DNA of 64,000 nt from a virus (Duplodnaviria; Heunggongvirae; Uroviricota; Caudoviricetes): positions 47,072 to 111,071 of the IMG/VR virus record IMGVR_UViG_3300030037_000008. One strand, given 5' to 3'. Positions within the stretch are counted from its first letter, which is position 1; every line of letters begins with the position of its first letter. Shown in pieces: positions 5,069 through 48,011 of this stretch. The position numbers and the translations under genes were made by a program. The notes beneath the pieces were generated by a model. That model had not been told where the DNA came from and did no database searches. It was given only the letters and a program-made list of their open reading frames with translations.

Positions 5069-5084
5069 ATATTTTCCTTTTGTT

Positions 5085-5855: not shown

Positions 5856-5857
5856 AT

Positions 5858-13838: not shown

Positions 13839-14106
13839 CTAACATATCCAGTAAAGATTGAATGTATTCTCTTTTTAGAGTTGTAATACCTGGAGCAACC
13901 AAGTCTCTTGTTAATCTGATTTTAAGAGCTTTAATAATTTCTTTATCAGTGGTTGGCTTTACTTCTTTATCTAATGGAGGGAGTACTACCTTTACATTTG
14001 ATCTAGACGTTAACTGAACAAATACTTCTACTATACATGTTATTAATAGAATAAGTACTACAAACAATATTAATATTGAACATGGATTATTTAACATGGC
14101 TTCCAT
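13831..14106 (-). CDS. small membrane protein (91 aa, one TM helix)
   Basis: N-terminal hydrophobic segment ILILFVVLILLITCIVEVFV. Confidence 0.4.
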   Translation of the reverse strand: MEAMLNNPCSILILFVVLILLITCIVEVFVQLTSRSNVKVVLPPLDKEVKPTTDKEIIKALKIRLTRDLVAPGITTLKREYIQSLLDMLDA

Positions 14107-15050
14107 TAGGCATATCCATTTAAAGTATGAGAGAAAGATTCATAGTTCTGAACACCTCTGCCACCACAGCATTCACAATCTTTAAGAGGTTCATTGACAA
14201 CTTTCAGAATACTTTTTAAGTATACATCAAGTCTATCTTTAAGATCTTTTACATTGGAACCTTCCAGTGGTTCTACAGTGTGGTAGTCTTTGAGATATGT
14301 GGTAATACTAGGTGACTTAATTTTGAAGACACATGGAGTGTCACGTTGAGTTCTGAATGAAGTCGAGAATCTTGGTACTACATAAGGATCACCACCATTT
14401 TTCTTTTCTTCAGCCCAAATTTCTTCAGTTTTAATTTTAACAACTTTCTTAATAGCAATTGAAGATGAATCATCTCTATCAAATATTGCGTATCTAAGAT
14501 CCATGTTGTCACGTAAGAAAGATCTGATAACTTTCATTAGTTGAGCTGGTTTAATTGTACAAGGTTTGTTGTATAACAGAATGTCAGTATTCATTAAAGT
14601 CTGAAAGTCATTCCATGTTACGATGTCAGCAAACTTAAGTTTAACTGAGTGATCAGTCATGTTTGATACCTTTGGATCTAGTTGATATGCATCGTTAATG
14701 GGTTTAGAAAAATCACCAGCAGAAATTCTGCCTAAGCAAATGTCGGTAGCTTTAAGAACATGCCAAATTTGATCATGCATGGATTCTTTATACTCTAGCG
14801 ATTCAATTTTTGAAACACCTTTAATAATCATAAAGTCTTTAGAATTAAAGGTAGCAGTTGTTTCATAATCGTTTAGCACTTTACCGTTGATCTTTAGTGA
14901 CATTCGTTGTGACACAGCATTCATATCTTCATACTTTAAAACTGTTTGACCGGATGTAAAGTTATTTTCATACACGAATTTAGCTACGATCATGTCAGCA
15001 TCTTTAACTTCAAAGTATTGAATACTTTTAATATGTTGTATGTTACCCAT
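14106..15050 (-). CDS. hypothetical protein (314 aa)
   Basis: Long ORF; C-terminus carries CECCGG as in 9865..10344. Confidence 0.5.
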   Translation of the reverse strand: MGNIQHIKSIQYFEVKDADMIVAKFVYENNFTSGQTVLKYEDMNAVSQRMSLKINGKVLNDYETTATFNSKDFMIIKGVSKIESLEYKESMHDQIWHVLKATDICLGRISAGDFSKPINDAYQLDPKVSNMTDHSVKLKFADIVTWNDFQTLMNTDILLYNKPCTIKPAQLMKVIRSFLRDNMDLRYAIFDRDDSSSIAIKKVVKIKTEEIWAEEKKNGGDPYVVPRFSTSFRTQRDTPCVFKIKSPSITTYLKDYHTVEPLEGSNVKDLKDRLDVYLKSILKVVNEPLKDCECCGGRGVQNYESFSHTLNGYA

Positions 15051-21831: not shown

Positions 21832-23043
21832 TTAGATAGTCAAGTCTTTAAGAATGATATCATAAACTAATGGAGCATCTGCATGAGATTTCCAGAAAGC
21901 GAATGATTCTTCTCTCATCTTATCTCTTGCAATTGGATCGTTAGCAAGTTTTTCCATGAGTTGTGCAGTCTCTTCTAAGTTATTCTCATCTACCCAAATT
22001 GTACCATTGTTTGGACAATCGATAAGTGGAATATCTTTAGTAAGGTGCATAGTATGCTGACCAAAATGCTTGTGGAATACTGGAATAGTACCGGATGCAA
22101 TTACATCTGCATGGCAATATTCAAAGCTCTTACCATATTTCTGAGGTTTGAGATTATAGAAGTCACAACCAAATGCTGTCTTGGAAAGACGATGCATACA
22201 TTCTACATATTTGTAATCACCAAAGACATAAGCATTTTCTCCAACTACCATGTCATCTGGACCAATGCCACATTTCTTGTAGTTAAGGCATTCTTTAATA
22301 TCAGGGCGTTGACCATTTGCACGTTGACCATCATTGAAGAAGAATCGCAATCCACCAATAGATAGTTCCATACCTTCTAAAGAAGTTTTGAATCCCTGTG
22401 CCTTGAGGTGTTCACGGTGAAGGTCATAGACTTGTTCAGGACCTTTCCACATTGCAGATCGACCAATGAATTTGAAAGTCTTATCATCTTGTTCTTCAAT
22501 GGGTTTCCAATAGTTAGCACGATGTTCATCAAAGTTAAAGCCTACTGGAAAGACTTTCATTGGAGTAGTGACACCTTCACGCGCCATCTTCTTAGCCAAG
22601 TCACCTTCAGTAGAGTGAGCAAAGATAGTATGCATCTTACTACATATTTCCATCATACGAGCATTTCGAACAATTGAATGAACTGAATGGTCTACACAAA
22701 TCATAATCTGTTTAGTAGTAAGACCATCAATCATCGCCATGAAGTTATCAACTGATTCATCCGGAGTTTTCTTGGGTGGCTGAGAGAAATGAATGACTAG
22801 ATCATAGTCACTATTAAGACGAGCAGTAAGAGCTTCACATTCATCTTTGTTCTTCATTCCCCATTCTTCTATTTCGATAGGTTGAGCATTACGTCTGCCC
22901 CATTTTTTATCGTTAGTAGCAAAGATGTCACAATTGACACCAATAGTTCTACAGTACTTTTGCATTTCAATACAGTTCTTTGTATTGCCTACACCTGGAA
23001 TACCGCGCGCCATGATGAGTGCTACTGATTTATAATTTGACAT
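21832..23043 (-). CDS. a-gt: DNA alpha-glucosyltransferase homologue (T4 a-gt / AGT-like, GT-B fold)
   Basis: Block-wise identity to T4 AGT. LIMARGIPGVGNTK matches IFMARGLEGCGVTK. FIGRSAMWKGPEQVYDLHREHLK matches WIGRTTTWKGFYQMFDFHEKFLK. SFEYCHADVIASGTIPVF matches SLEYTHLELGACGTIPVF. NGTIWVDENNLEET matches SGIIWFDENDMEST. The RBS AACAAAAAGGAAAAAT-ATG is shared with frd and uvsX. Confidence 0.8.
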   Translation of the reverse strand: MSNYKSVALIMARGIPGVGNTKNCIEMQKYCRTIGVNCDIFATNDKKWGRRNAQPIEIEEWGMKNKDECEALTARLNSDYDLVIHFSQPPKKTPDESVDNFMAMIDGLTTKQIMICVDHSVHSIVRNARMMEICSKMHTIFAHSTEGDLAKKMAREGVTTPMKVFPVGFNFDEHRANYWKPIEEQDDKTFKFIGRSAMWKGPEQVYDLHREHLKAQGFKTSLEGMELSIGGLRFFFNDGQRANGQRPDIKECLNYKKCGIGPDDMVVGENAYVFGDYKYVECMHRLSKTAFGCDFYNLKPQKYGKSFEYCHADVIASGTIPVFHKHFGQHTMHLTKDIPLIDCPNNGTIWVDENNLEETAQLMEKLANDPIARDKMREESFAFWKSHADAPLVYDIILKDLTI

Positions 23044-25280: not shown

Positions 25281-27119
25281 CTAATTATTGACACCTGTGT
25301 TATTAACTTTAATTGAATTAAATATCTCTACTGCCTTTATATAAAACATCATACAACGATTTATATTATCTTTATGTAAAGGAATCATAGATAAAAATAA
25401 TGTTGCAGTAATGAACTTGATTTCTCTAAGATCAAAACTACATTCTACTAACTTCTTTTCAAATGCATCTATAATAGATTGATTCTGATTGGATGTAAGT
25501 ATTTTATATTGAAAGTCTTTAGGATCATTGTTATAAATCATGTATACATCATTTGAAATGTAGTCATAGTTACCTACAATAGAATGATAAAGTTTGGCTA
25601 CATCATATCGTACATCTCCATAGATAGTCGGAACAGATGAATCATAATGTCCCTTAGGATCAATAACTTTCAAAGTATCTGAGTTAGAATCAAACAACAT
25701 GTTACCGAAGAATAAGTCGCCATGAACTATCTGATAGTACTTGTTATAATTAGATCCTTTGAATATTTCATCATACTGTTCTGCTATATAATCATAGTTA
25801 CTAACTCTTCCATCAAGTTCCTTGCCATTTACAGTTATTGCATTATTTAAATAAAGACTAAGGAATTCTGTATCATTACATATACCAGTACTTGAATCCA
25901 TAGTATCTGCAATACGATTATTTAGTTTAGTTAGTATAGCATCCTTAAACATTTTGTTTGCAGGTATTAATGGGACACTATTAATTGATTCTGACTTAAA
26001 TCTTCTTAACATAGTAAATGTAGTTTCAAACAATCTATTCCAGTACTTAACGTCATTATTGTCATACATAAACTTACTAGCACATGTTACATGATTGATG
26101 TATTCTAACTCATATTGTTTATGCTCAGAGAAGAATGAACTGTCGGCATTATAATCAATAAATTGCGGAGTAAAGATTCTTAGTCTATTAGGAAGATTAA
26201 GATACCATGCAATTTCCTTTTCAATTTTGTCTGCATTCTCTTTGGATGATTTGACAATTGTATTATGATCTGTTACAGATATCTCATTAAAGTACCGAGT
26301 CATGTTCTTCTTACATTTAATGTAAGTATCAATCTCACCAACATCTTCCCAATTCTTAGCACGTACTGTTCTAATTTTAAATCCTATCGCAATGTACTTC
26401 TCCATGATAGTAGAGATTTGAAATTCGCCGGCAATAGTCTTACCCGATTCTTTAGCCATCTTAATAGCTTTACGAAACATCATTGGGTTAGTAAAATTGT
26501 ATGCTCCAATAAGAGCTCCATTGTCAGTAGGAGTAACATCTTCCATAGAAGGTTTATCTAAGAATTCTGTAACGTGAGTAATATGTTTAGGACCTTCCAT
26601 CTCACCATTAGCACCAAATCTTACATGGCCAGTAAACATCATGTTAGTATCATCACCTTTGAGAATACACCAACGTGATTGATCTCCGTGTTCTACTTCT
26701 CTATAATAGATAGCATCATCAAAATCTTCAGGACTTTCATTAAGTAAAGTATCGCCTAAAAGAATGAACATGTTTCTAATGTTTGCAAACTTATCAATAA
26801 CTTTATCTACTGCTAGTTCAACTGCACCGCCTAATCCGCTCAGAGTGTCTTGAGTAACATAAGTAATCGAGTCAAATTGATCCTTATAGATAAGATCTAC
26901 GTACTCTTTAATGCTGTCTTCGTTATATCCAGTGACGATGCAGATATCTTTGTAATCATGCTTTTTAAAGTAATCTAACTGATGTCCAATGATCGGCTTA
27001 CCTTCAATTGGCACTAGACACTTAGCAAAGTTATCAGTCAGACTCAGCATTCTACTACCTCTACCAGCTGCAGGTATAATTGCTACTTTAACTCCGTTAT
27101 TAGAAATTAAGTTTATCAT
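25281..27119 (-). CDS. bifunctional sugar-1-phosphate nucleotidyltransferase (N-terminal) / APH-choline-kinase-fold sugar anomeric kinase (C-terminal)
   Basis: N-terminus KVAIIPAAGRGSRMLSLTDNFAKCLVPIEGKPII is the G-x-G-(T/S)-R-(L/M) signature of RmlA/GalU/GlmU-type NDP-sugar pyrophosphorylases. C-terminal region has the Brenner kinase motif IVHGDLFFGNMLF and a downstream IDPKG (D-x-G). 612 aa. Confidence 0.7.
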   Translation of the reverse strand: MINLISNNGVKVAIIPAAGRGSRMLSLTDNFAKCLVPIEGKPIIGHQLDYFKKHDYKDICIVTGYNEDSIKEYVDLIYKDQFDSITYVTQDTLSGLGGAVELAVDKVIDKFANIRNMFILLGDTLLNESPEDFDDAIYYREVEHGDQSRWCILKGDDTNMMFTGHVRFGANGEMEGPKHITHVTEFLDKPSMEDVTPTDNGALIGAYNFTNPMMFRKAIKMAKESGKTIAGEFQISTIMEKYIAIGFKIRTVRAKNWEDVGEIDTYIKCKKNMTRYFNEISVTDHNTIVKSSKENADKIEKEIAWYLNLPNRLRIFTPQFIDYNADSSFFSEHKQYELEYINHVTCASKFMYDNNDVKYWNRLFETTFTMLRRFKSESINSVPLIPANKMFKDAILTKLNNRIADTMDSSTGICNDTEFLSLYLNNAITVNGKELDGRVSNYDYIAEQYDEIFKGSNYNKYYQIVHGDLFFGNMLFDSNSDTLKVIDPKGHYDSSVPTIYGDVRYDVAKLYHSIVGNYDYISNDVYMIYNNDPKDFQYKILTSNQNQSIIDAFEKKLVECSFDLREIKFITATLFLSMIPLHKDNINRCMMFYIKAVEIFNSIKVNNTGVNN

Positions 27120-27528
27120 TCTCGCATATCTCCTTTAATTCTTCGTAAGTACTTGTAACAAATTCACGTGGGCGTATAGCTTTGTCATCCACATAGAATC
27201 CTTCCTTTGCCCAGGGCTTTCCTATCATTAACTGATCGTATTGTACATTGTACTTAGTTAGCCATGCTTCTAGAACAGGTACTGTATGTTCTGTTATCTT
27301 TTCTATGTCTCCATCAAAAGATCTCATGTTTCTTGCAGTAAACAGAACTATTTGAAATCCTGAATCTTTATAAAGTTTTATCTTAGTTATCATATCATGA
27401 TTAGGAACTGCGTTAACATAGTCTCCATTGTATGTTGTACAAATCGTATCATCAATATCCATAACAATTGTCTTTTTGTTTATTGGCATATTATTATCTT
27501 CTTTAAGTTTATTACTTTTAAGAAACAC
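27100..27528 (-). CDS. HAD-superfamily phosphatase
   Basis: Motif I DxDxT in IVMDIDDTIC, motif II LFTARN, and C-terminal GKPWAKEGFYVDDKA (K and DD motifs). 142 aa. Overlaps the upstream gene by 20 nt. Confidence 0.65.
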   Translation of the reverse strand: MFLKSNKLKEDNNMPINKKTIVMDIDDTICTTYNGDYVNAVPNHDMITKIKLYKDSGFQIVLFTARNMRSFDGDIEKITEHTVPVLEAWLTKYNVQYDQLMIGKPWAKEGFYVDDKAIRPREFVTSTYEELKEICENDKLNF

Positions 27529-27549: not shown

Positions 27550-28155
27550 TTAACTGTTATCATCTCCCCATTTAGTATTTTTCTTAAATACTTTTACACA
27601 TATAACGTTAAACCAAAATACTATAAATATTGATACAGTAATTACTGCAGGGCTTTTGGTAATTGTAAGTATGTTAATACAGTGGAGTATTGACATGATC
27701 ATTAGATATGGCATGAATGCTGAGTATATATAATGTCTGGCGCCCTTTTCGAATAAAATAGGAAGAAATGCTACTCCGCCTAATGCAAGACTAGTTAACA
27801 TAAACGCGCCTACCATCCACATAGCCGGACCTGACTTGTCAGGTCCAATGGCAATAGAAACTACCGCGATTACTACTGTTAAGAATCCTGCCCAACATGC
27901 ACCTAAAACTCTATGTAGCCATTCTTTATTAAACGCTCTAATATCTTCCGCTGATGGTTTATAGTCATCTGAATCAGACTGTGATAATCTAGATTCTACT
28001 CTAGCTAATCTTGCTTCAGACTTAGCAGCTTCAGATTCTCTTGTTCTACATTCGCTTGAACAGTATCCGCCATAGTAACTTTCACTAGCATCGTCACAAT
28101 GTCTATTAGCGCATTTAGAATAACCTCCATCTTGGTATAATCCATGTTGTCGCAT
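27550..28155 (-). CDS. integral membrane protein (Cys-rich N-terminus + 4 predicted TM helices)
   Basis: N-terminal CANRHCDD..GGYCSSEC, then four hydrophobic helices (AGFLTVVIAVVSIAIG, MWMVGAFMLTSLALGGVAFLPILF, IYSAFMPYLMIMSIL, ITVSIFIVFWFNVICV). Confidence 0.5.
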   Translation of the reverse strand: MRQHGLYQDGGYSKCANRHCDDASESYYGGYCSSECRTRESEAAKSEARLARVESRLSQSDSDDYKPSAEDIRAFNKEWLHRVLGACWAGFLTVVIAVVSIAIGPDKSGPAMWMVGAFMLTSLALGGVAFLPILFEKGARHYIYSAFMPYLMIMSILHCINILTITKSPAVITVSIFIVFWFNVICVKVFKKNTKWGDDNS

Positions 28156-28168
28156 ATTACTTTCCTTT

Positions 28169-28333
28169 ATTTGTTTAGACTTTTCTTAATACTAACAAAC
28201 TGTTCTTCGTTATTATCAAAGAATTCAAGTACTATTTTTCTACGTAAGTTTTTGACAAACGGATCTGTTTCGTTATCCATTTCTTTACGGAGTGTCATGA
28301 CCTTATTATATAATTCATCAGGTGTATATTTCA
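28169..28333 (-). CDS. small ORF (about 55 aa) not in the supplied track
   Basis: Reading the reverse complement gives MKYTPDELYNKVMTLRKEMDNETDPFVKNLRRKIVLEFFDNNEEQFVSIKKSLNK. Its TAA lies within the AGGAAAG RBS of the next gene, and it has its own AAGGA RBS. Coordinates are approximate. Confidence 0.35.
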
Positions 28334-28400
28334 TTTAATGATCCTTGTTATTGATTAATATAGTCTAACAGTAATCCAAGAATCACTAATGTACAATCAT

Positions 28401-29078
28401 CTAATCATAAAGTTTAGTCATCTTTCCTAGATTGAATGCTACATCAATAAGCTTAGTAGCATCCAAAGGTTCGGTATCATCTACAATAGGAGAAGAAAGA
28501 ATCATATCTACTGAAGCTCCACTACGTAATGCTATGTTAGTTGCCATGTTTCTAACATCACATTTAAATAGTTTAGGAATATCTTCAGGCTTTGGAGAGT
28601 TTTTACATTTAGCACAAGCTAATACGATTGTCATTTCAGATGAGGTAATAAGATCTACATCTATACAACATAACAACTCTGATTTATAAGAAGTTACTAA
28701 TGATGCAATACCCATTAAGATATCAGTTTCACGAAAGAAGTTAAATAAATCACCTGTATAAGAATGAACATCTACACAAGCTTTAACATAATTCCATGCA
28801 TCTTTCTGACAAGAAATTCCTATTATAGAGTTTTTATAAATCAGAGTACTATCATCAGCTTCAGTAACAAGAATTCTTATTTTAGCAGCTAGTTCTTTGT
28901 CAGTAAATCTACCAAGTAAATCATTGACTGATTCGTTTCCGTCAATCTTCATATCGCAATCTATTACTCTATTAATATGAGCTGAACCTATTGCTATATC
29001 ACTAAGGGCTCCTTGAACTCCAGTAGCACCAGATCCATATGGTATCGATGCTGCAGCATAACTCATAATATTACCCAT
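28401..29078 (-). CDS. hypothetical protein (225 aa)
   Basis: ORF with no confident motif. Ends TKLYD. Confidence 0.45.
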   Translation of the reverse strand: MGNIMSYAAASIPYGSGATGVQGALSDIAIGSAHINRVIDCDMKIDGNESVNDLLGRFTDKELAAKIRILVTEADDSTLIYKNSIIGISCQKDAWNYVKACVDVHSYTGDLFNFFRETDILMGIASLVTSYKSELLCCIDVDLITSSEMTIVLACAKCKNSPKPEDIPKLFKCDVRNMATNIALRSGASVDMILSSPIVDDTEPLDATKLIDVAFNLGKMTKLYD

Positions 29079-29331
29079 TATGCTTTTCGTACAGAGCTCT
29101 TAATCTAGCAATGCCATCGATGTAAGTCTTCTCTAACTCGTCTATAGATTCTTTAGTTACTAATTCGACATATACTTTGCTACAAGAATCTTTGCCACTA
29201 GACTTAGCAAGTTTAGCATTCAATACTTTTGATGACATAACGTGAGCACCATGAGCTCCACCGATAACTTCTTTTACTACATAATAGCCTTTAGTGTACG
29301 ATGTAACTAATCTACCTTCCTTTACTATCAT
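29071..29331 (-). CDS. hypothetical small protein (86 aa)
   Basis: ORF in an overlapping operon. Confidence 0.4.
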   Translation of the reverse strand: MIVKEGRLVTSYTKGYYVVKEVIGGAHGAHVMSSKVLNAKLAKSSGKDSCSKVYVELVTKESIDELEKTYIDGIARLRALYEKHNG

Positions 29332-29344
29332 TATAACTCTCCAA

Positions 29345-29581
29345 TCATTTGGTTAAGTGAGCATTACCCCACCATTCTTTTCCATCAATAACTTCTTCTA
29401 AAACTTTAGAATAATCTTCTTTAACTAACTTAACTAGTAAGTCTCTCATTTTATCATCACACTTAGTTTTTCTAAGAGTCTTCATAAATCTATAAGTACC
29501 TTTCGGCATGAAATCGAATCTAAATAGTATTCCGTCTTTAGTACTTTCTTTAATTTCAGATTGAGTCATTACGTTTTTCAT
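29345..29581 (-). CDS. hypothetical small protein (78 aa)
   Basis: ORF only. Confidence 0.4.
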   Translation of the reverse strand: MKNVMTQSEIKESTKDGILFRFDFMPKGTYRFMKTLRKTKCDDKMRDLLVKLVKEDYSKVLEEVIDGKEWWGNAHLTK

Positions 29582-29655
29582 ATTATATCTCGTTGTTAAT
29601 TAGTTTAGATAAAGATATACTACTAAAACATAATGTACAATCATTTATTAATATT

Positions 29656-30588
29656 TTATTTTGATTCTCCAATGATAGCATTAATTTTATCTCTAAGATC
29701 AGCGTTATGCTGAGTAACAGCGATACCATATTGTTGTGGTAAGTAAACATCTTTTAGTACTTTGTAATCATCTTTAACATAATCATTCAAAACACATTCA
29801 TCATACATTACAGAATCTACTTCCCCTTTGTACAGAGCTACCATACACTTATCAATATTGTCATATAGTTTAGGTTCATTACCAGCATGGGTCATTAAGT
29901 TATGTGAAGAAGTATTTCTAATAGTAGCAACCTTTTGTTGTTTAAGTTCTCCCATTGAATATGATTGTACTGAAGCTTTATTCCATGATGCAGCAGAGAT
30001 ACCAATGATAGCTCCGAAGTACATAATACCACTCATCATGATGAATGCTGCAAATATTCTACCTGATATAGTTTTTGGAGCTACATCACCTAGACCTGAT
30101 GTTGATGATAAATTAAGACTTAGCCATATACCATGTCCGGCTCCAGCCAAAAATCCTTCATCGTTATTATCTCCATTGAGATCTTTTTCTAATACAGAGA
30201 ATATCATTCCTGATATGATCAAGAACACTACGAAGAGTGCTGCTGGAATAATCATATTACCAAAGAAGTTACAACACTTATTCCACATGCCAGTAGTATC
30301 TTTCTTAAGGAGTTTAACTGGAGAGTTGTTATAAGGAATTGTAAAATCAATCACTGATTCTCGTTGAGCATTAATAGTGATGTTACCAATAGCTATATCG
30401 GAAACACCTGTCTGAACATTGTTTAACGCTGTTGCAAGATCTACGTTCTGCATCTTAACATCGAACTGTTTGGATAATTCAACAATAAGATTCTTATCTT
30501 TCTGTGAGGCGTCATGTGTCATAGAAACGTTTAAAGTCTCTGCGTTTAGTGAAACCATTAACGATAGTAATAGGGCGAGGTATTTCAT
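29656..30588 (-). CDS. ionotropic-glutamate-receptor-like (GluR0-type) ligand-gated K+ channel: periplasmic-binding domain split by a 2-TM pore with a TxGxGD selectivity filter
   Basis: Signal peptide MKYLALLLSLMVSLNA. S1 lobe with the family-3 solute-binding-protein motif DIAIGNITINAQRESVIDFTIPY. M1 helix IIPAALFVVFLIISGMIFSVL. Pore loop WLSLNLSSTSGLGDVAP, where TSGLGD matches T(V/I)G(Y/F/L)GD. M2 helix ISGRIFAAFIMMSGIMYFGAIIGI. S2 lobe KVATIRNTSSHNLM...YDNIDKCMVALYKGEVDSVMYDECVL, which resembles GlnH/HisJ. Confidence 0.65.
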   Translation of the reverse strand: MKYLALLLSLMVSLNAETLNVSMTHDASQKDKNLIVELSKQFDVKMQNVDLATALNNVQTGVSDIAIGNITINAQRESVIDFTIPYNNSPVKLLKKDTTGMWNKCCNFFGNMIIPAALFVVFLIISGMIFSVLEKDLNGDNNDEGFLAGAGHGIWLSLNLSSTSGLGDVAPKTISGRIFAAFIMMSGIMYFGAIIGISAASWNKASVQSYSMGELKQQKVATIRNTSSHNLMTHAGNEPKLYDNIDKCMVALYKGEVDSVMYDECVLNDYVKDDYKVLKDVYLPQQYGIAVTQHNADLRDKINAIIGESK

Positions 30589-30944
30589 TAGAGTAGTTCC
30601 TTTTTGTCTACGATTGGGCTAATTGTTATTGAGCATACAGTATGGAATCCATACTCACCATGATTACAATATTCTTCGAATTCTTCACAAAGTTCTTCTG
30701 AAACTCCATAATGTTCACTTGGACTTAATTGACCAAGATCATCTCTTAAACAATCTCCTGTTGGATAGTTATTACCATGCGTCCAGTCAGATCCAGATTT
30801 TGACGTAGTCTTATATGGTTCGAAGTTTTTGATCTTAATGATTAGCGGCATTAGCTCAGCTAACTTTTCATCAGTGATAGTACTAATTCGAATTAATTCA
30901 TCACCATCGTTGCAATCTACTGTTACCGTAATTTCATGTGTCAT
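30588..30944 (-). CDS. hypothetical protein (118 aa)
   Basis: ORF only. Confidence 0.4.
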   Translation of the reverse strand: MTHEITVTVDCNDGDELIRISTITDEKLAELMPLIIKIKNFEPYKTTSKSGSDWTHGNNYPTGDCLRDDLGQLSPSEHYGVSEELCEEFEEYCNHGEYGFHTVCSITISPIVDKKELL

Positions 30945-31468
30945 TTTATCTTACCTTCTTTTGTTAGATGTTGGCAAAACAATTGTTGTTTTGCATATTC
31001 TTTGAAACCTTTCTTATGAATAATAAACTTAGCTTTGATTGTAGAAATACGCCCAATCAAATCAGTTAACTTCGAATCGTATTGAACTAAAGCTTTCTGA
31101 TTAACTATTATAATGTCAATTACATCCGAAGTCTTATAAGAATCTTTAGTATTGATCATTACAGATGGATTAAAAGGATTTTCAATTAAGTAATCTATAT
31201 CGTTATAAAATAATTGTAAGTAGTTCTTATACAGATAACCTAGCTTTGTCGCATCAGTACCGTCATGTGCTTTGAGCCTTCCATTAATACTAGCTGTCAT
31301 AACTACATTGGATCCCATTATCTCAGTTGAATGAAATTTTCCACATGCAGATGTATAGGTGTTTTCTTTATAGACACTAAGTCTCATACTGAACTTTGGA
31401 AACTTAAGATAATCTAGTTCAGATTCATCTCCATACATTCTTAAACAATCTAATTTACTCATAATCAA
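30941..31468 (-). CDS. hypothetical protein (175 aa)
   Basis: ORF only. Confidence 0.45.
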   Translation of the reverse strand: MIMSKLDCLRMYGDESELDYLKFPKFSMRLSVYKENTYTSACGKFHSTEIMGSNVVMTASINGRLKAHDGTDATKLGYLYKNYLQLFYNDIDYLIENPFNPSVMINTKDSYKTSDVIDIIIVNQKALVQYDSKLTDLIGRISTIKAKFIIHKKGFKEYAKQQLFCQHLTKEGKIK

Positions 31469-31481
31469 TTCCTATGAAAAT

Positions 31482-31512
31482 CGGGTTAGTAGAATCTAAT
31501 CTATCTAACCCG
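31482..31512 (-). terminator. possible hairpin/attenuator (8-bp stem CGGGTTAG/CTAACCCG, 15-nt loop) followed by AUUUUCAU on the minus strand
   Basis: Inverted repeat between the SPFH gene stop and the next start. Overlaps a weak TTGTAC-N17-TAGATT promoter-like element, so its role is ambiguous. Confidence 0.25.
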
Positions 31513-31538
31513 CTTGTACAATCTATTTAGGAACTAAT

Positions 31539-32453
31539 TTACTTTTTAGTTTCTACAATTTCTTTGGTAGCTTGTAACTGTACTGCTTGGTTCATTGTGC
31601 TTTGTCCCATTGCTTCGTATGGAAGTACAAAGATTGTATTACTTTCACCTTTAGCTAATGCAATAGTTGTTTCTTCCATTACTTCTAATTGGCGCCATTT
31701 GACGAATGCTGGAGTTAATGAGTCAGCAAGTATTTGATTTTCTCTTGCTTGGCTCGTAGCTTTCAAGACTCTAACTTTATTCAATTCAGTAATTACGGTT
31801 ACTTGGCGAGCAGCATCGATAATATCAGCCTTTGCTTTAGCAGCTTTCAATTCATCTTGAAGTTGAGCGTGTTTGATCTCTTCTCGAAGTAATTTAATTG
31901 AAGCAGGGTGATCAAGATTACTAAGCATTACGGCAGAGATTTTGACTGGCATATTAAGTTGTTTGATTCTTTCTAGAACAATTGTACCGATCTTAGCTTC
32001 AATATTTTCTCGTTCATTACGAATATCATTGGTGTTATATTTACCAACTACATTCCTAGCAGTATTCCTTACAATATCTCGTATCACCATTGTATAGAAA
32101 TCTGCAATGCTCATTTCATTTTTATTATCAACCTTTTTTGTAGGTACTTTATTGATAAGGAATCCTACAGATGTAGTATCAACTTGGAATGATAAAACTG
32201 TCTTAACATCTACATCCATGTTAATTTCATCAGTACAAAGAATTTGAAGTTTCTCTGTATATGAACTGAGTTTTCCATCAACATAGAAGGCAACATCACG
32301 GCCAACTACTGTGTAGTAACCTTTATCATGGATAGTAGTTGCGCCATCAGGTTTCATGACAATAACAGTCTTGCCGGGTGGAACGATTTCACCACAACCC
32401 GCACAAACTAACATGATAGCAGCTAATAGTAATGTCTTAATAATTTTATTCAT
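31539..32453 (-). CDS. SPFH/band-7 (stomatin/prohibitin/HflKC-like) domain lipoprotein
   Basis: Signal peptide with a lipobox-like LVCAGC. Band-7 core LQILCTDEINMDVDVKTVLSFQVD, which matches T-x-D-x-V-x-V-D-x-V-V-x-Y-x-V. C-terminal coiled-coil region with AAKAKADIIDAARQ. Confidence 0.55.
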   Translation of the reverse strand: MNKIIKTLLLAAIMLVCAGCGEIVPPGKTVIVMKPDGATTIHDKGYYTVVGRDVAFYVDGKLSSYTEKLQILCTDEINMDVDVKTVLSFQVDTTSVGFLINKVPTKKVDNKNEMSIADFYTMVIRDIVRNTARNVVGKYNTNDIRNERENIEAKIGTIVLERIKQLNMPVKISAVMLSNLDHPASIKLLREEIKHAQLQDELKAAKAKADIIDAARQVTVITELNKVRVLKATSQARENQILADSLTPAFVKWRQLEVMEETTIALAKGESNTIFVLPYEAMGQSTMNQAVQLQATKEIVETKK

Positions 32454-32459
32454 ATTCTT

Positions 32460-32825
32460 TTATTCCTTTTTTGTGAATTCTAAGAATTCATTTATTGTTT
32501 TATCTCTTAATTCTTCTGTATCATTTAATGCTTTCTTTGAAGTAACATCATCAGTATTAGAAGGGTTGTAGATTATTGATCCTGCTTGGTTTTCTTTTGG
32601 TACTATCTGTCCTGCTTTATTAGATTCTTTGAAGTCTTTAAAAGTTCCAAAGTATAATAAAGATGTTACTGTACAGAACATAGAAAATAACAAGAATCTT
32701 AGTAGGTAGGACTTTGCTAATTTTTGAACATACTTATATTTGTCTAAATCATTTAAAACAATATGGAATGATGTAGCCATTATAATAATAAAGAAATATA
32801 AGAATAGTGTTAAACCGTGAATCAT
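32460..32825 (-). CDS. small membrane protein (2 predicted TM helices)
   Basis: Hydrophobic stretches LTLFLYFFIIIMATSF and LLFSMFCTVTSLLYFG. Confidence 0.45.
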   Translation of the reverse strand: MIHGLTLFLYFFIIIMATSFHIVLNDLDKYKYVQKLAKSYLLRFLLFSMFCTVTSLLYFGTFKDFKESNKAGQIVPKENQAGSIIYNPSNTDDVTSKKALNDTEELRDKTINEFLEFTKKE

Positions 32826-32893
32826 TTTGACACCTTAGAATTTAATCTCCTTGGTCACTATAATAGTAACCAAGGAGATCGTTTATACTTTAC

Positions 32894-33580
32894 TTACTTC
32901 TTAGTATTCTTTGCTTCTTCTTTCTTTGCTTTCATAGCTTCTGCAAAGGAAGGTTTGCTAGAAGAATTGATGTAAGTATCTTCAAGGTTCTGAACTTCAG
33001 CTCCGGCACTTGCAATTTCTTCGTAAGCTTCTGCTTCAGCTTCGTTGGAATTGACATGTTCTTCGAATGCTTTGAGTTTACCAAGAGCTGAATTCTCACC
33101 GTTAAGTGCTTCAGAGTCAGCAGCCATTTCTTTGCGAATCTCAGCAGATTCATTTCGAGCTTTAAGAGTATTGAGACCAGAAGCTGCAGAGTTAATTGCA
33201 TTTTCATACTTCTGAATATCAGCGCGGAGGCGATTTTCAATTTTCTGATTTTCATCAACTTGCTTAGTGAATGCTTTTACTTGTTTAGTAGCATCCTCAA
33301 GTTTGCCGATTGCGATATTGTAATGATCTTCGTTACCAGCTTCGAGAGCACCGTCAACGATAGTTTGATACTTGCCTTCGTTAACCTTAGCATCTTTGAG
33401 TTGGCGTTCAAGAAGATTAGTATTTGTCATAATCTTTGCCAACTTGTGTTTGCTTTCTTTAACTTTAGCTTTACCATCTTCGAGGCCAAGTTCTCCCTCT
33501 AATTCTTGATTTTTGATGCTGTTATCGAGATCTCTGATTTTACCGCGAAAAAGATTTTTCAATGTATTGAATAGTCCCAT
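32894..33580 (-). CDS. PspA/IM30 (phage-shock protein A / Vipp1) family coiled-coil protein
   Basis: N-terminus MGLFNTLKNLFRGKIRDL matches the PspA start MGIFSRFADIVNANINALL. The remaining ~220 aa is charged, heptad-rich coiled coil of PspA length. RBS AAGGAATACATATT-ATG. Confidence 0.55.
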   Translation of the reverse strand: MGLFNTLKNLFRGKIRDLDNSIKNQELEGELGLEDGKAKVKESKHKLAKIMTNTNLLERQLKDAKVNEGKYQTIVDGALEAGNEDHYNIAIGKLEDATKQVKAFTKQVDENQKIENRLRADIQKYENAINSAASGLNTLKARNESAEIRKEMAADSEALNGENSALGKLKAFEEHVNSNEAEAEAYEEIASAGAEVQNLEDTYINSSSKPSFAEAMKAKKEEAKNTKK

Positions 33581-33634: not shown

Positions 33635-33663
33635 AAGATACAACACTTAAAGTGTTTGTACAA
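33635..33663 (-). promoter_or_regulatory. early promoter cassette AAAGCGATTGTACA-N17-TATCTT
   Basis: Reverse complement of gtacaa (33658-33663) and aagata (33635-33640). The spacer contains the palindrome ACACTTAAAGTGT. Confidence 0.45.
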
Positions 33664-33678
33664 TCGCTTTTATAACTT

Positions 33679-34095
33679 TTATGAATATAATTTACAAGCG
33701 CTATAAATCAATTCAATTTGTTTGTAGTTTAGTGAAGTGTCAGGTATTTCAAAGGTTCTACCAGGATCATCCAGCATGTCTAATAAGCTTTCTTCAGACA
33801 TAACTTGTAGCGCCATAGTTTTACAATCGTTAACTCTCATATGATAGTTAGAAGGCTTCTTAGAAAACCAATTCTTTTTATGAGGTTTAATATGAAATAT
33901 ATAAAAGCTATCTCCATTAACTCTTACTATGTATCTATTTAAGAATTGTTCTAATAAGAAGTTAGGAGTTTGCCAATTACCTTCACCACACGCGGTACAT
34001 CTAATTGTTCTACTTGCGTCACATCCAAAACAATGACTACTCATTAATATCCTCCTTCTACTACATGAGACATTAAATATCTTCATAGGTTTCAT
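33679..34095 (-). CDS. hypothetical protein with an N-terminal Cys4 zinc-finger-like cluster (138 aa)
   Basis: CFGCDASRTIRCTACGEG. Ends CKLYS. Confidence 0.45.
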   Translation of the reverse strand: MKPMKIFNVSCSRRRILMSSHCFGCDASRTIRCTACGEGNWQTPNFLLEQFLNRYIVRVNGDSFYIFHIKPHKKNWFSKKPSNYHMRVNDCKTMALQVMSEESLLDMLDDPGRTFEIPDTSLNYKQIELIYSACKLYS

Positions 34096-34342
34096 ATACT
34101 CTTACAGCTTTACAATCAAAGCCATTATCTCTAAGAGCTTGTGCTTTATCTAACACACTTTTCTTATTGACATATACTTTACCAGATTGATCAAATCGTG
34201 CTGACCATGCAGGCTCACCTGACTTATAAAACCATCCAATATCTGGTGAGTTATACTTTTTAGGTGATGTACCTTCAACTGCGATAATTTTATAAGTAGG
34301 TTTCATTTGACTAGTCGTTCTCGATAGTGTCATAGAGTTCAA
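34073..34342 (-). CDS. hypothetical small protein (89 aa)
   Basis: ORF only. Confidence 0.4.
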   Translation of the reverse strand: MNSMTLSRTTSQMKPTYKIIAVEGTSPKKYNSPDIGWFYKSGEPAWSARFDQSGKVYVNKKSVLDKAQALRDNGFDCKAVRVYETYEDI

Positions 34343-34952
34343 TATCAGATTCAGTAATGGTATTACCTTTAAAGATATTGATTACGCCAGCGCCATCTTC
34401 TTCAATATTAGGACCATAGCTTTCATCGATTACAATAACTGTATCATATTCAATGTCATCTTCTGTAACATATTCAGAGATAGTTAGAATGCCTTGACCA
34501 TCAAATTCTGAGTTAGTAACCGTACATTGCATTTCAGCATGTTTCTGAATAAACTCTGAATCATCACCATCAGTAATTGAATTAGTGAAACTGATATCAT
34601 CAAGTTGAGTATCTTCAAGATCTAAACCTTCAGTATCAAATAGGAATGTACAATCTTGTTCGAAGTAATCTGCTCTACCCCAATTTTCAAAATCATTGGT
34701 GTCATTGAATACTACGAAGATTGATTCTTCGTTGTCGATTGTTTTGTAGATGAGCGAGAGATCCTGTTCAGGATGATGAAGATCAATAATATCATAAGTT
34801 ACCATGTCTTCTAATTGAACGATTGAACGTTTACTTTTTACTTGAAATACAATGCCGTCTGGATTTGATCCGAATTCATGTGCATCCATCTGGCTTCTTG
34901 GGTCTTTAAGGAGAATGAAGTCTGTAATATCAATATGATTCTTGTTCACCAT
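34311..34952 (-). CDS. acidic hypothetical protein (213 aa)
   Basis: D/E-rich ORF. Confidence 0.45.
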   Translation of the reverse strand: MVNKNHIDITDFILLKDPRSQMDAHEFGSNPDGIVFQVKSKRSIVQLEDMVTYDIIDLHHPEQDLSLIYKTIDNEESIFVVFNDTNDFENWGRADYFEQDCTFLFDTEGLDLEDTQLDDISFTNSITDGDDSEFIQKHAEMQCTVTNSEFDGQGILTISEYVTEDDIEYDTVIVIDESYGPNIEEDGAGVINIFKGNTITESDIELYDTIEND

Positions 34953-35026
34953 TGGTGTGTTCCTTTTTAAATAGATATATGTAATAAAAGAGAGACCATA
35001 ATTGATCTCTCTAAGGTGTTAGTGTA

Positions 35027-35821
35027 TTAGTTTCGTGATTGTGTGATGCCTACACCAATGATAATTAGAATAAGGATTACTAAAACAATCGCCATTCCAT
35101 TTCCACTGGAAGTTCGGTGCACTACTACTGGTTGTTGTTGATGATGTACTGGAGCATAGATAGGAGCTGGTTGAACATAATATCCTGCGTTTCTCATAAG
35201 AATAGCAGTCATTGCTACATCAGCTAGAGAGTTATATGGAGAGAAGATTCCGCCATGATGATAACCGTATGAGAGAGTAACGGGGTTCCATCTTACATCG
35301 TAACTTCTACCACCTGATGAGTAAGTAGAAGGAATGTGGCTAGGTCGAGTTGCTGGTTTAGTTGCATAGGTTGATTTGTATTTAGTAGCATTTTTAGATT
35401 TGAAATCTGCCATGGCAGCTTTCTTGGTTTTGAATGAAGTACCAGAGGCTTTGGCCTTAGCTGCTAATTTAGCATCAGCTGGACTCAATTTCTTTGGTGG
35501 CATTAATTTCTTTTTAGGTGCAGGTTTTTTAACTGCAGTTGGAGTCTTTTTGACTGATGTTTTAGGGGCGGTTGTTTTTGGTTTTGTTGCATATCCAGAT
35601 GAAGCGGACTTTCGTGGAGCAGGTGTTGCTTTTGGTTTGGGTTTTGCTACCGGCTTTGCTTTGTACGGTGTGGATTTTGGTTTAGATGCCCGGTAAGGAC
35701 TGGATGAACTCGATCGTGATGAACTTGAGCGAGATGAAGAGGAGCCACGTTTAGCTTCTACGGAGGGAGCAATAAGAATTGCGAATGCGATAGCAAATGT
35801 TGCTAGTAGGTTTTTAACCAT
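35027..35821 (-). CDS. secreted/membrane-anchored low-complexity Ser/Lys/Pro/Ala/Thr-rich protein (264 aa)
   Basis: N-terminal signal peptide LLATFAIAFAILIAPSVEA. Long basic low-complexity core (SSSSRSSSSRSSSSS, KPKPKATPAPRK, AKLAAKAKA). C-terminal TM helix MAIVLVILILIIIGVGI. The coding DNA is locally GC-richer than the rest of the window. Confidence 0.5.
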   Translation of the reverse strand: MVKNLLATFAIAFAILIAPSVEAKRGSSSSRSSSSRSSSSSPYRASKPKSTPYKAKPVAKPKPKATPAPRKSASSGYATKPKTTAPKTSVKKTPTAVKKPAPKKKLMPPKKLSPADAKLAAKAKASGTSFKTKKAAMADFKSKNATKYKSTYATKPATRPSHIPSTYSSGGRSYDVRWNPVTLSYGYHHGGIFSPYNSLADVAMTAILMRNAGYYVQPAPIYAPVHHQQQPVVVHRTSSGNGMAIVLVILILIIIGVGITQSRN

Positions 35822-36193: not shown

Positions 36194-36222
36194 AAGATAT
36201 ACCAATTTTAGTTATTGTACAA
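36194..36222 (-). promoter_or_regulatory. early promoter cassette AAAGTGATTGTACA-N17-TATCTT
   Basis: Reverse complement of gtacaa (36217-36222) and aagata (36194-36199). Confidence 0.45.
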
Positions 36223-36263
36223 TCACTTTACCATAAAATTTTAATTTATTTTTTACCTCATAC

Positions 36264-39563: not shown

Positions 39564-41048
39564 TTAGGTTGTTGCTACGTTGTGGCGAATCTCTTTATAA
39601 GAGTATTTCTTTAAGAGCACTCCATTTTCAAAGATAGGTACCATGAGATCTTCCAATTCAGGATACTCTTCTAATCTTACAGTAGTAATCACACCATCAA
39701 TTTTGACATTTTTAAGTCTGCCTCTCATAGAAGCTTTTGACTTATCTGCAGGTTCTTTGTAAACATCATGCCAATCTTCGCCAATCTTACGTTGTGCACT
39801 ACATTTGAAAGCAGAGCGCTGAGAGTCTCTATTTCCTGATGCCAAGTGGAGATTACCACCTTGTCCAACTAAGCAATTCTCCGCTGACCATTTATTCTCT
39901 AAGAGCATGTCATAGATGTTAATGATGTCATCATCTTTAAGACCGTCACCGTAAATGCATCCAACTGACGGGTGCAATACTTTATAGCCTTTATCATTTG
40001 TAGTATAACCAAATGTTTCTGATAGAGTTTCTACAATCCATAGTACTTGATCTTCTGCAGTGTCGCCCTTGAATCTTGGTGAATCCGGACGAACTACAAA
40101 TTTAGTAAGTGAATCTTTTGGGGCATGTTCCCAACGTTTAATGATAGCATCTTTGAAGGTGCCACATATCATGTTAGTTAGAGTTTCAACTACACCATAA
40201 GAATCTGATACATAACTGAGTACACCAGTAGGACTAACTTTGATGTTATGTGCCATGACAAGATGTTCTTTGCCTTTGCCTTCTGATGTAGTAATGCTGT
40301 GTTCATTTGCTCGTACTGAAAAGCAATAAGGTTCATTAATGAAGTCACCTTCATAGTGGCCATCGATCATATCAAGTGTCGGACCTAATGTGTCAGTACC
40401 CATTCCACCCGCTAGAATGTGAGCTGCTCCACAAATGGCAGCTTGTTCGTAACAGCTTGATCCTCTCATTCCAAAATCATGGAGCATAAATGGAGCAACA
40501 TCTTCAGCATAGTCACAACTTTCTTGAAGAGCTTTAAGAATAATCTTTTGTGTTACAGCTGACTTAGTAATTGTAAGACTGCCACCCCAAACCCATGTTG
40601 AAATTGTTTCAAAGTGATTAGTGATATCACGGAAAGCATCTAATGAAAGATTATCAGGATCCATGTTCTCTACTACAAATAAAGCATTACCTTTTCCTAC
40701 TGGTACAGCTACACCTTCAGGCATTGCTTTAATACGGATAGATAGTTTGCCACCATTCAAATCAACCAATTCTTGCCATGGACGAAATTTGAATGCTTCT
40801 TCTAAAGGTTTATTGAAGTGAAGCGGAAGAACTAATTTAGCTTCATCGATATGCTCTTGGAATACTACTCTGCCTGCCATATATTCTTCAATAGTATATT
40901 GGAGACCCATGAGACGTGTGTGATCATATTGAGCACCGGGGCGAGATGCAAAGTATGCACTTACACCATTGACATTGTCAAATCGAAGGAAGGGTTGTTG
41001 CAATTTATACGAGTCGCTTCCTAGGATTAGGTTTTTCTGTTTACGCAT
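39564..41048 (-). CDS. nadV: nicotinamide phosphoribosyltransferase (NAMPT/NadV, NAD+ salvage)
   Basis: 494 aa with NAMPT-family blocks: GSDSYKLQQP (the N-terminal substrate-binding SxSYK), FMLHDFGMRGSS, SVRANEHSITTSEG and VVRPDSPRFKGD. Strong promoter (TTGTAC-N17-TATAAT) and RBS AAGGAGTTAAA-ATG upstream. Confidence 0.8.
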   Translation of the reverse strand: MRKQKNLILGSDSYKLQQPFLRFDNVNGVSAYFASRPGAQYDHTRLMGLQYTIEEYMAGRVVFQEHIDEAKLVLPLHFNKPLEEAFKFRPWQELVDLNGGKLSIRIKAMPEGVAVPVGKGNALFVVENMDPDNLSLDAFRDITNHFETISTWVWGGSLTITKSAVTQKIILKALQESCDYAEDVAPFMLHDFGMRGSSCYEQAAICGAAHILAGGMGTDTLGPTLDMIDGHYEGDFINEPYCFSVRANEHSITTSEGKGKEHLVMAHNIKVSPTGVLSYVSDSYGVVETLTNMICGTFKDAIIKRWEHAPKDSLTKFVVRPDSPRFKGDTAEDQVLWIVETLSETFGYTTNDKGYKVLHPSVGCIYGDGLKDDDIINIYDMLLENKWSAENCLVGQGGNLHLASGNRDSQRSAFKCSAQRKIGEDWHDVYKEPADKSKASMRGRLKNVKIDGVITTVRLEEYPELEDLMVPIFENGVLLKKYSYKEIRHNVATT

Positions 41049-47965: not shown

Positions 47966-48011
47966 ATATTTTCCTTTTTTGTTATTGGTTTCATATAGTA
48001 TATAAAACAAA

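Follow-up and report, generated by a model that had tools for sequence, protein, structure and literature searches.

We found that a 64,000-nucleotide stretch of an uncultured jumbo phage (IMG/VR record IMGVR_UViG_3300030037_000008, positions 47,072 to 111,071; hereafter the window) carries four genes, encoding two proteins that we term A and B, a homologue of PspA/IM30/Vipp1, and a ligand-gated channel of the GluR0 type, which as far as sequence comparison goes are a conserved unit, kept in order over very deep divergence (Table 1). Our favoured interpretation, to which we give about as much credence as doubt, is that these genes constitute a phage-encoded Psp-like system that would maintain the host inner membrane and be coupled to an amino-acid-gated K+ channel. 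The initial annotation of this region had proposed a membrane-stress module of five elements between positions 27550 and 33580, namely a Cys-rich protein with four transmembrane (TM) segments, an ionotropic glutamate receptor (iGluR)-like channel, an SPFH lipoprotein, a 2-TM protein, and a PspA homologue. All five open reading frames (ORFs) are located on the minus strand where it had placed them, and the peptides MGLFNTLKNLF, LVCAGC, and LCTDEINMDVDVKTVLSFQVD are present in their translations; the boundary so drawn missed the conserved partners A and B, which lie upstream of it.

Related loci were reached in a large protein database through three entry genes (PspA, channel, and B), and the set with conserved order comprised nine non-redundant loci from four lineages, the window included (the others being L002/L023, L005/L006, L008, L010, L011, L012, L014, and L021). 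In every locus reached from homologues of these genes, A was followed by B, zero to two small genes, PspA, zero or one small gene, and the channel, all on a single strand, with pairwise identities of 22–57% and GC contents of 33–50% across the nine core loci. Specifically, entry by PspA returned only five homologues (26–34% identity), for which an SBP_bac_3/ion-channel gene was next or next but one, and entry by the channel profile returned approximately 15 full-length homologues, with PspA directly upstream in every context examined. When all window proteins were compared with the related loci by BLAST, A and B were always present upstream of PspA, and entry by B yielded 21 family members together with two further lineages, L021 and L023, each with contiguous A, B, PspA, and channel genes. 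Given that the same adjacency repeats in every related locus examined, the clustering of PspA and channel is, on this comparative evidence, far beyond chance. The closest relative of the window, L021 (PspA 39% identical; a 207-kb contig with 33% GC), had no insertions, and the additional genes of the window are thus lineage-specific insertions, comprising ORFs of 89 and 138 amino acids (aa) between B and PspA, and the 2-TM, SPFH, 175-aa, and 118-aa ORFs between PspA and the channel. The carriers of the module were jumbo phages, with contigs of 207–257 kb.

Of the five elements grouped initially, PspA and the channel were therefore co-inherited, on one strand and adjacent or at most one small gene apart in all lineages reached. 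An explanation by chance, in which the five would be unrelated accessory genes of a hyperplastic region with no joint function, is very improbable. It is refuted for the core by an order A-B-PspA-channel that persists in four lineages, down to identities of 22–30% and over a 17-point range in GC, by the fusion of A with B in one lineage, and by SPFH cassettes of two unrelated subfamilies having been recruited beside the module independently; moreover, the pairwise identities above argue against the loci being recent horizontal copies of one block. Chance does account for the 2-TM and SPFH cassette, which moves independently, for the 4-TM protein, and for the four lineage-specific small ORFs, and the presence of a promoter of its own before each unit speaks in its favour.

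Outside this set, tblastn against GenBank phages recovered no relative of PspA, the channel, the A domain, or the 4-TM protein, and the L021 PspA as query gave two marginal matches, both to unannotated faecal contigs. Four scans of IMG/VR with single proteins and alignments returned zero relatives. We noted that two proteins (P0019 and P0036) of L008, a 256,855-bp contig from the Joint Genome Institute (JGI), are also deposited in NCBI as proteins of a 'Promethearchaeota archaeon' metagenome-assembled genome (MAG), on a 557,248-bp contig; the gene content of the L008 contig is phage-like, so the archaeal MAG contig may be mis-binned.

The PspA assignment, like those of the SPFH and iGluR-like proteins, withstood Pfam profile searches. 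PspA_IM30 (PF04012) was matched by 32894–33580 with an E-value of 4.7e-23 (82.4 bits, cutoff 33.9) over residues 2–220, corresponding to profile positions 1–214 of 220, that is, at full length. By profile, the closest solved relatives were Vipp1 proteins: positions 1–221 of the PspA family profile aligned with residues 1–218 of a Synechocystis Vipp1 chain (E 3.3e-35), and the solved PspA chain 8qbw was also aligned (E 5.7e-34). The N-terminal cationic amphipathic helix was retained (residues 2–19, hydrophobic moment muH 0.58, net charge +2), at a level reached by 1.3% of shuffles; four of five homologues passed the same test (at most 4% of shuffles), L005 was borderline (6.8%), and F4 and F11 were invariant or nearly so. 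On profile and helix evidence, the phage protein is a full-length PspA/Vipp1 of the ESCRT-III type with an amphipathic helix of the membrane-binding type. Its score against the proteobacterial PspA equivalog TIGR02977 was far below the cutoff (37.5 versus 243 bits), and by this measure it is a PspA-family protein and not an orthologue of E. coli PspA.

As PspA/Vipp1 proteins are remodellers of the ESCRT-III type, and the nearest solved relatives are Vipp1, one could picture the phage PspA shaping internal membranes or vesicles that protect the genome or serve assembly or release, the channel and A/B being membrane-resident cofactors, in keeping with the jumbo-phage nature of the carriers. We consider this highly unlikely: the C-terminal extension of Vipp1 is absent (the alignment stops at chain residue 218 of 277, and the phage protein has 228 aa), the window gives no sign of a membrane-containing virion or of compartment genes, and the module is located among early-type accessory genes, not structural genes.

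Two further proteins were observed near PspA in individual lineages. L023 encodes a 57-aa protein with a PspC domain (4334–4507, +; E 2.9e-19) 4.5 kb upstream of A-B-PspA-channel, representing a second Psp-system component on a phage contig. In addition, an acidic protein of 151–169 aa directly upstream of PspA was conserved in one lineage; it had no Pfam match (one member searched), no PDB-sequence match (profile), and no counterpart in the window.

In the case of the channel (29656–30588), Pfam recognised SBP_bac_3 (E 2.6e-12), Ion_trans_2 (E 1.5e-8), and Lig_chan-Glu_bd (E 6e-7), with SBP_bac_3 spanning residues 41–308 and Ion_trans_2 residues 119–197, so that the ligand domain is split by the pore. 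The layout comprised a signal peptide, an S1 lobe, an M1-P-M2 pore, and an S2 lobe, with two TM segments in a hydropathy scan. The channel family profile hit the ligand-binding domains of bacterial iGluR homologues (2pyy, E 6e-30; GluR0 1ii5, E 3e-23) and was collinear with plant GLR3.4 and GluN1 across S1-pore-S2. Channel copies among phages were only 22–29% identical; R76, T226, and D263 were invariant in 15 channel sequences. When aligned to AncQR, a solved amino-acid-binding protein, the channel Arg fell within the ...ITxxR...F..PY motif and the Asp within AVvxD, positions that bind the alpha-carboxylate and alpha-amino groups of the ligand in this fold. The selectivity filter read TSGLGD in the window (Tyr to Leu relative to TxGYGD), TIGYGD in L002, L021, and L023, and TIGYGR in L005–L012. 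Judged by domain content and layout, the channel is a secreted clamshell of the amino-acid-binding type that is split by a two-TM pore of the K+-channel type.

A ligand-binding domain that faces the periplasm and keeps these alpha-carboxylate- and alpha-amino-binding residues also favours a role in lysis timing or superinfection control, whereby the channel would sense periplasmic amino acids (e.g., glutamate from lysed neighbours) and shift the membrane potential, and PspA would buffer the proton-motive force (PMF) against early holin triggering, together providing a switch for lysis inhibition or superinfection exclusion. Holin triggering depends on the PMF, and both an envelope-spanning A and a periplasmic SPFH lipoprotein would sit where external signals arrive. 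However, no holin, endolysin, or spanin gene was adjacent to the module in the window or the related loci, and the sigma-70-like promoters described below suggest early, not late, expression, so that we regard this role as unlikely.

Protein A has a signal peptide, a basic low-complexity linker rich in Ser, Lys, and Pro, a conserved, putatively periplasmic domain of approximately 100 aa, and a TM anchor at the C-terminus, and protein B is acidic, soluble, beta-rich, and predicted to be cytoplasmic. An exhaustive search with the C-terminal domain of A returned 387 cluster representatives at E<=1e-3 (221 at E<=1e-10), and nearly all members of the family were 210–300 aa long with the domain at the C-terminus. 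In L025 (63% GC), A and B occurred as a natural fusion of 587 aa (109–1872, +), in which a signal peptide, a Ser-rich linker, the A domain with its TM helix, and a B-matching domain followed one another; the A part was 38% identical to A of the window (E 3e-29), and the B part matched the B profile in hhalign with a probability of 99.8% (E 2.3e-28). This fusion implies a topology with A outside, one TM helix, and B inside, and implies that the two act together; on its evidence, A and B together make up a single transmembrane unit, each contributing one half. Beside the fusion (2424–6539, −) were an AAA ATPase, a 219-aa protein, a PspA_IM30-like protein that fell below the Pfam threshold (28.3 versus 33.9 bits), and a protein with TM, NMT1/SBP, and OmpA regions. 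In L027, A was followed by a true B (probability 99.1%), with a DUF350 protein just upstream and PspA 5 kb away.

AlphaFold models of B and of the A domain were confident (predicted local distance difference test, pLDDT, 81.7 and 89.6, respectively), and neither resembled a solved structure. B also had no match among predicted viral structures, a PDB sequence search with the B profile returned nothing, and neither protein belonged to a Pfam or NCBIfam family; DUF4178 (PF13785) was matched by only one of the 21 B members, and weakly (E 0.011).

Reading of the intergenic regions revealed a promoter motif of the phage, TAAAgTGATTGTAC(A), followed at a constant 17-nt spacer by a TAnnnT hexamer that was mostly TAnnTT; a generic promoter/terminator scan performed no better than shuffles. 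Exact GATTGTACA cores numbered 14 in the window versus approximately 0.8 expected from base composition, and when up to one mismatch was allowed there were 57 matches versus 24.9 ± 4.8 in shuffles. The strand of the motif agreed with gene orientation with one exception (5311, within a minus-strand ORF), and the motif, with its host sigma-70-like geometry, probably marks one temporal gene class. Separate copies preceded the A unit, PspA, the operon of the 175-aa, 118-aa, and channel genes, and two downstream units, indicating that the module genes share a promoter class, not one operon, in the window.

A strong hairpin after PspA, usually with a U-tract, was present in all eight other loci that were folded (nine of nine with the window), and we infer that it keeps PspA expression high relative to that of the channel. 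In one lineage (L005, L008, L010, L011, and L012), a TTGACA-N16/17-TATACT-like promoter was observed after the stop codon of PspA and ahead of the strong hairpin. With this order, the hairpin would form the 5′ end of the channel mRNA in these loci, as a possible attenuator or stabiliser.

Table 1. Module genes, accessory genes, and regulatory elements in the window, and the corresponding features of other loci where a locus is named.
Feature	Position	Strand	Remarks
Protein A	35027..35821	-	264 aa; core
Protein B	34311..34952	-	213 aa; core
PspA/IM30/Vipp1 homologue	32894..33580	-	228 aa; core; ESCRT-III superfamily
GluR0-type ligand-gated channel	29656..30588	-	310 aa; core
SPFH/Band_7 lipoprotein	31539..32453	-	304 aa; accessory; between PspA and channel operon
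2-TM small protein	32460..32825	-	121 aa; 6 nt upstream of SPFH gene
4-TM Cys-rich protein	27550..28155	-	201 aa; separate transcription unit from 28398 promoter
175-aa and 118-aa ORFs	30588..31468	-	Translationally coupled to channel gene, overlaps 4 and 1 nt; window-specific
89-aa ORF and Cys-rich 138-aa ORF	33679..34342	-	Window-specific; between B and PspA
Promoter upstream of PspA	33635..33665	-	GATTGTAC(A), 17-nt spacer, TATCTT
Promoter of 175-aa/118-aa/channel operon	31493..31523	-	Same class; overlaps terminator-like hairpin 31482-31512 after SPFH gene
Promoter upstream of 94-aa ORF and A	36194..36224	-	Same class
Terminator-like hairpin after A	34989-35012		
Stem-loop just downstream of PspA	32844..32880	-	Perfect 17-bp; free energy (dG) -25.5 kcal/mol; z -5.96
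Exact GATTGTACA cores	595, 5311, 41101	+	
Exact GATTGTACA cores	12018, 15584, 15960, 28398, 29642, 31523, 33665, 34655, 36224, 37537, 62487	-	
Promoter-hairpin arrangement, other loci	L005 10664-10760; L008 7916-8006; L010 4378-4473; L011 7910-8006; L012 7090-7190		
Acidic protein upstream of PspA, other loci	L005 9493-9960; L008 6722-7201; L010 3165-3674; L011 6753-7208; L012 5885-6394; L014 429-884		
2-TM and SPFH cassette	L017 (pf16) 3690-4846; L018 (PA1C) 2154-3367; L019 (Miami) 2160-3367; L020 (KPP10) 2126-3355; window 31539-32825		

Under our favoured interpretation of a Psp-like system, the A/B unit would span the inner membrane after infection, with A on the periplasmic and B on the cytoplasmic side, and would recruit or regulate PspA at the inner leaflet, in a role like that of PspB/C, LiaI, or YdjG/H in cells. 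Oligomers of PspA would limit proton leak and stabilise the membrane, and a periplasmic amino acid would open the channel, through which K+ would move and reset membrane potential and turgor. The hairpin would permit abundant synthesis of PspA while output of the potentially toxic channel stays low, and the 2-TM and SPFH cassette would be a separately mobile add-on that acts on the periplasmic face of the envelope. As an outcome, the infected cell would stay energised during the long jumbo-phage cycle. The mechanism proposed initially, by which the membrane is first perturbed and then protected, is conjectural.

Several points weigh against this interpretation. Gene content cannot separate general membrane maintenance from counter-defence or lysis control. 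The filter of the window is TSGLGD, not TxGYGD, and that of one lineage is TIGYGR. A and B lack a recognisable fold or family, and the role of anchor or sensor for PspA is therefore drawn from position, topology, and analogy alone. A distant member of the A family, L029, had no recognisable partners, with no detectable PspA or channel and with neighbours that were not demonstrable as B or PspA. Finally, the interpretation draws support from the lack of a confirmed relative of this PspA or channel clade in IMG/VR, in GenBank phages, and in scans of 185,579 species-representative genomes with the PspA and channel profiles; these genome scans were pattern-based and of limited sensitivity, making theirs a weak negative, and absence from cellular genomes is thus not proven.

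The SPFH gene of the window (31539–32453) matched Pfam Band_7 (PF01145) at residues 23–208 (E 1e-10; 42.4 bits, cutoff 23.6) and also phrog_200, annotated as 'lipoprotein' (E 9e-21). Homologues from cultured phages have canonical lipoboxes (e.g., VGC/S, TGC/S, and SGC/G); in the lipobox LVCAGC called initially, the Cys at −3 of CAGC is in our reading off the strict PROSITE lipobox rule. The N-terminal signal/lipoprotein sequences in the window and in the phage homologues would place the SPFH domain outside the cytoplasm. Using tblastn, we found SPFH proteins of the window type in 64 GenBank phage records (22–26% identity), none of which had PspA. In pf16, PA1C, Miami, and KPP10, a tightly coupled protein of 102–122 aa precedes the SPFH lipoprotein, as it does in the window (32825..31539); this upstream partner has a polar tail and two hydrophobic segments in three of the four (one in KPP10), and its likeness to the 2-TM protein of the window is one of architecture, similarity in sequence not being significant. 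Neither PspA nor the channel accompanied the cassette in these four phages, and the cassette was absent near the module in L021, L002/L023, and L005/L006. By this distribution, the 2-TM and SPFH pair is an independently mobile two-gene cassette that was inserted here between PspA and the channel, and is not part of the core. The 2-TM protein had no NfeD match in Pfam or NCBIfam.

A Band_7 gene was also found 3–4 kb downstream of the channel in L008, L010, L011, and L012, where it is TM-anchored, flotillin-like, and followed by a 1-TM protein. We rejected the possibility that the SPFH gene of the window is the same inherited gene, as there was no pairwise similarity and both the anchor type and the partner genes were different. 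L014 had a pair of ORFs (370 and 118 aa) at the place of this Band_7 gene, and lies outside the four confirmed cases; a 111-aa and 302-aa pair in L021 was rejected as an SPFH cassette. That two unrelated cassettes of an SPFH and a small membrane protein came to lie beside the module independently suggests a functional affinity, not a fixed partnership.

The hydropathy scan bore out the initial TM counts, with four hydrophobic segments in 27550–28155 and two in 32460–32825. The Cys-rich 4-TM protein had no homologue in related loci or GenBank phages and no family match, and on these searches it is an unrelated orphan, with no evidence that ties it to the module. Synteny in related phages thus kept the order of PspA and channel among the initial five elements, and neither the SPFH cassette nor the 4-TM protein. 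Among the remaining insertions, the 118-aa ORF (30588–30944, −) matched phrog_8428 and was 44% identical to an ORF of a 595-kb uncultured huge phage (LR756511.1), and the 138-aa ORF had no family match (the 89-aa ORF was left out of the family scan); none of the 175-aa, 118-aa, 89-aa, and 138-aa ORFs was present in related loci. PADLOC returned no match for nine of ten block proteins, and a weak match to the candidate system PDC-S06 (E 5e-4) for the 175-aa ORF.

The source phage is represented by a contig of 255,591 bp, and the window (33% GC) encodes a T4-type topoisomerase II large subunit, a UvsX-like recombinase, an alpha-glucosyltransferase, a DNA methyltransferase, and NAMPT. Among 50,697 GenBank phage records, the best match of the topoisomerase II was only 44% identical, with the jumbo phages RsoM2USA and XacN1 and the 158-kb phage pf16 among the top matches, and megablast of the block against GenBank phages found no nucleotide-level relative. 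From these comparisons, the source is a deeply divergent uncultured jumbo phage, only distantly related to T4. A tRNA search of the window found zero, and hence gave no clue to the host.

Several genes around the module were noteworthy in their own right. A 314-aa protein (14106–15050, −) matched Gad1 (Gabija anti-defence 1) in Pfam (E 7.6e-28, 98 bits), and is a homologue of a known counter-defence gene approximately 17 kb away from the module; NAMPT is encoded at 39564–41048 (−). In L005, L008, L010, L011, and L012, the module is flanked by NadE, NAPRTase, a PRPP-synthase-like gene, NAD kinase, and CTP_transf_like. These genes for salvage of nicotinamide adenine dinucleotide (NAD) near the module may form a counter-defence set for NAD reconstitution. 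The block is directly followed on its downstream side by a 612-aa NTP_transferase to which a domain known from uncharacterised phage proteins (phrogs 24015 and 21938) is fused; it lies in the region 25281–27528 (−) with a 142-aa ORF, and is accompanied by the alpha-glucosyltransferase (21832–23043, −); these three may represent a nucleotide-sugar or DNA-modification pathway. Lastly, the UvsX-like recombinase (45992–48010, −) is unusually long (672 aa), its recombinase match beginning only at approximately residue 350, after a large, uncharacterised N-terminal region.

With respect to counter-defence, the module could guard against abortive-infection effectors that permeabilise or depolarise the inner membrane, such as bacterial gasdermins, TM effectors of retrons or of cyclic oligonucleotide-based antiphage signalling systems (CBASS), and RexB-like channels, with PspA patching the membrane and the channel rebalancing ions. 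ESCRT-III acts against gasdermin pores in eukaryotes, which offers an analogy for patching by PspA. Alternatively, phage PspA might be a decoy that lures host systems using PspA, e.g., CBASS Cap2, which conjugates the cyclase to PspA; in B. subtilis, the CBASS cyclase is held on PspA (bioRxiv 10.1101/2023.09.29.560134). In line with such a role, the module lies in an arm rich in counter-defence genes (the Gad1 homologue and NAMPT in the window), the NAD-salvage genes surround it in other lineages, and host sigma-70-like promoter geometry is compatible with early expression. Nevertheless, this neighbourhood is weak evidence, because such arms collect accessory genes of every sort, none of the module proteins had a solid match to a defence or anti-defence model, and counter-defence leaves both A/B and a ligand-gated channel of the periplasmic type without a specific function. 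We therefore view it as possible, if rather doubtful.

More speculatively, and again with doubt outweighing belief, the module might be an ESCRT-III-type repair system that is wired through a hitherto unknown, two-part transmembrane adaptor (A/B) to a K+ channel gated by extracellular amino acids, such that the phage would sense the chemistry outside (e.g., neighbours lysing), set the potential of its host, and seal the membrane against damage of its own making or against pore-forming suicide defences of the host. If true, this would be a viral circuit to sense, depolarise, and repair, and would give bacteriophages their first functional receptor of the iGluR type.

Within ESCRT-III, PspA/Vipp1 proteins represent the bacterial branch, and their targeting to membranes is still debated; the module offers a compact, conserved set of partners (A, B, and channel) for expression and testing of PspA targeting. 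It would also be a clear case of a phage that supplies membrane-stress machinery of its own, beyond merely triggering that of the host, and a phage-encoded ligand-gated channel of the iGluR type bears on the evolution of glutamate receptors and on viral control of host bioenergetics. A and B provide confident structure models without a solved relative, and the A domain defines an unannotated family of more than 200 sequence clusters. Furthermore, separating the module from a widespread, uncharacterised cassette of 2-TM protein and SPFH lipoprotein corrects the picture drawn from this genome alone, and makes the cassette open to direct study in cultured large phages.

The cellular PspA operon classes of Ravi et al. 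2024 (PMC11237479) involve CesT/Tir-like chaperones, TM-Band-7-flotillin, DUF350, lipoprotein, and beta-rich DUF4178 proteins, with solute-binding proteins of the PBPb-OmpA type and a K+ channel that senses its ligand inside the cell as further partners; beyond these, viruses and ion channels are unmentioned in that paper. The phage loci are similar in that PspA is accompanied by a partner that is secreted or a lipoprotein, by a beta-rich protein inside the cell, and by small TM and Band-7 proteins, a K+ channel being present in one of the cellular classes. Likewise, L027 has the order DUF350, A, and B, one B member has the weak DUF4178 match, and an acidic protein of approximately 160 aa (without a family match) is directly upstream of PspA in one phage lineage, at the place taken by the CesT/Tir partner in cells. 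Unlike these classes, the module is carried by phages, has no polyamine genes, and bears a periplasmic GluR0-type ligand domain on its channel, and, unlike in DUF350 operons, DUF350 (YjfL) is absent from the window and the core loci and present only in the distant L027. The phage module thus looks like a relative of the cellular classes, with membership not demonstrated.

The link between PspA and SPFH proteins is regarded as ancient (PMC10936438), and in the B. subtilis pspA-ydjGHI (samGHI) system the SPFH protein YdjI, with the membrane proteins YdjG/H, recruits PspA (PMC8581546). As in that operon, the PspA gene of the window is followed by genes for a small membrane protein and an SPFH protein, and the two share the concept of a PspA that needs dedicated membrane partners, for which such cellular systems are the precedent. 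YdjI is described as a cytosolic SPFH protein, whereas the SPFH protein of the window would be a secreted lipoprotein on the opposite side of the membrane from PspA and hence would not contact the cytoplasmic PspA in the manner of YdjI. The phage SPFH cassette is moreover dispensable for the module and moves independently, and Pfam and NCBIfam searches of the larger ORFs of the block found no partners with the TPM domain (YdjH) or zinc ribbon (YdjG).

The phage channel resembles GluR0 (Synechocystis Slr1257) and other prokaryotic iGluR homologues in its signal peptide, S1, M1-P-M2, and S2 arrangement, in which no further TM helix follows S2, in a filter close to the K+-channel type, and in its conserved Arg/Thr/Asp ligand triad. 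It differs from GluR0 in being phage-encoded and strictly linked to PspA, in being shorter (310 aa), with a ligand-binding domain that is trimmed at the N- and C-terminus, and in its TSGLGD and TIGYGR filters. It is also comparable to the minimal K+ channel pores that viruses encode (chlorovirus Kcv family), although Kcv has no ligand-binding domain and comes from eukaryotic viruses. Kcv-type viral channels alter the membrane potential of the host.

The gene set beside the A-B fusion of L025 is like the operons of PspA/Snf7, AAA+ ATPase, and PBPb-OmpA (PMC11237479), and both the PBPb-OmpA class and the phage channel link PspA with a periplasmic solute-binding domain; in contrast to these operons, the window has no AAA+ ATPase or OmpA domain, and its solute-binding domain gates a pore and does not serve a transporter. 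Among phages, a pspA-like gene receives a brief mention for the Jug jumbo phages of the gut (PMC12880540), where it pairs with terD, not with a channel or A/B. In the literature searched, neither a phage GluR0-type channel nor an A/B-PspA-channel module was described, which upholds the initial claim that the combination was undescribed, though not its placement in T4-like phages, as this phage is not closely related to T4. Operons that join PspA with Band-7, solute-binding, or K+-channel partners are known from cells; our searches returned no earlier account of the module as a Psp-type system borne by phages, of A/B, or of a GluR0-type channel as a partner of PspA.

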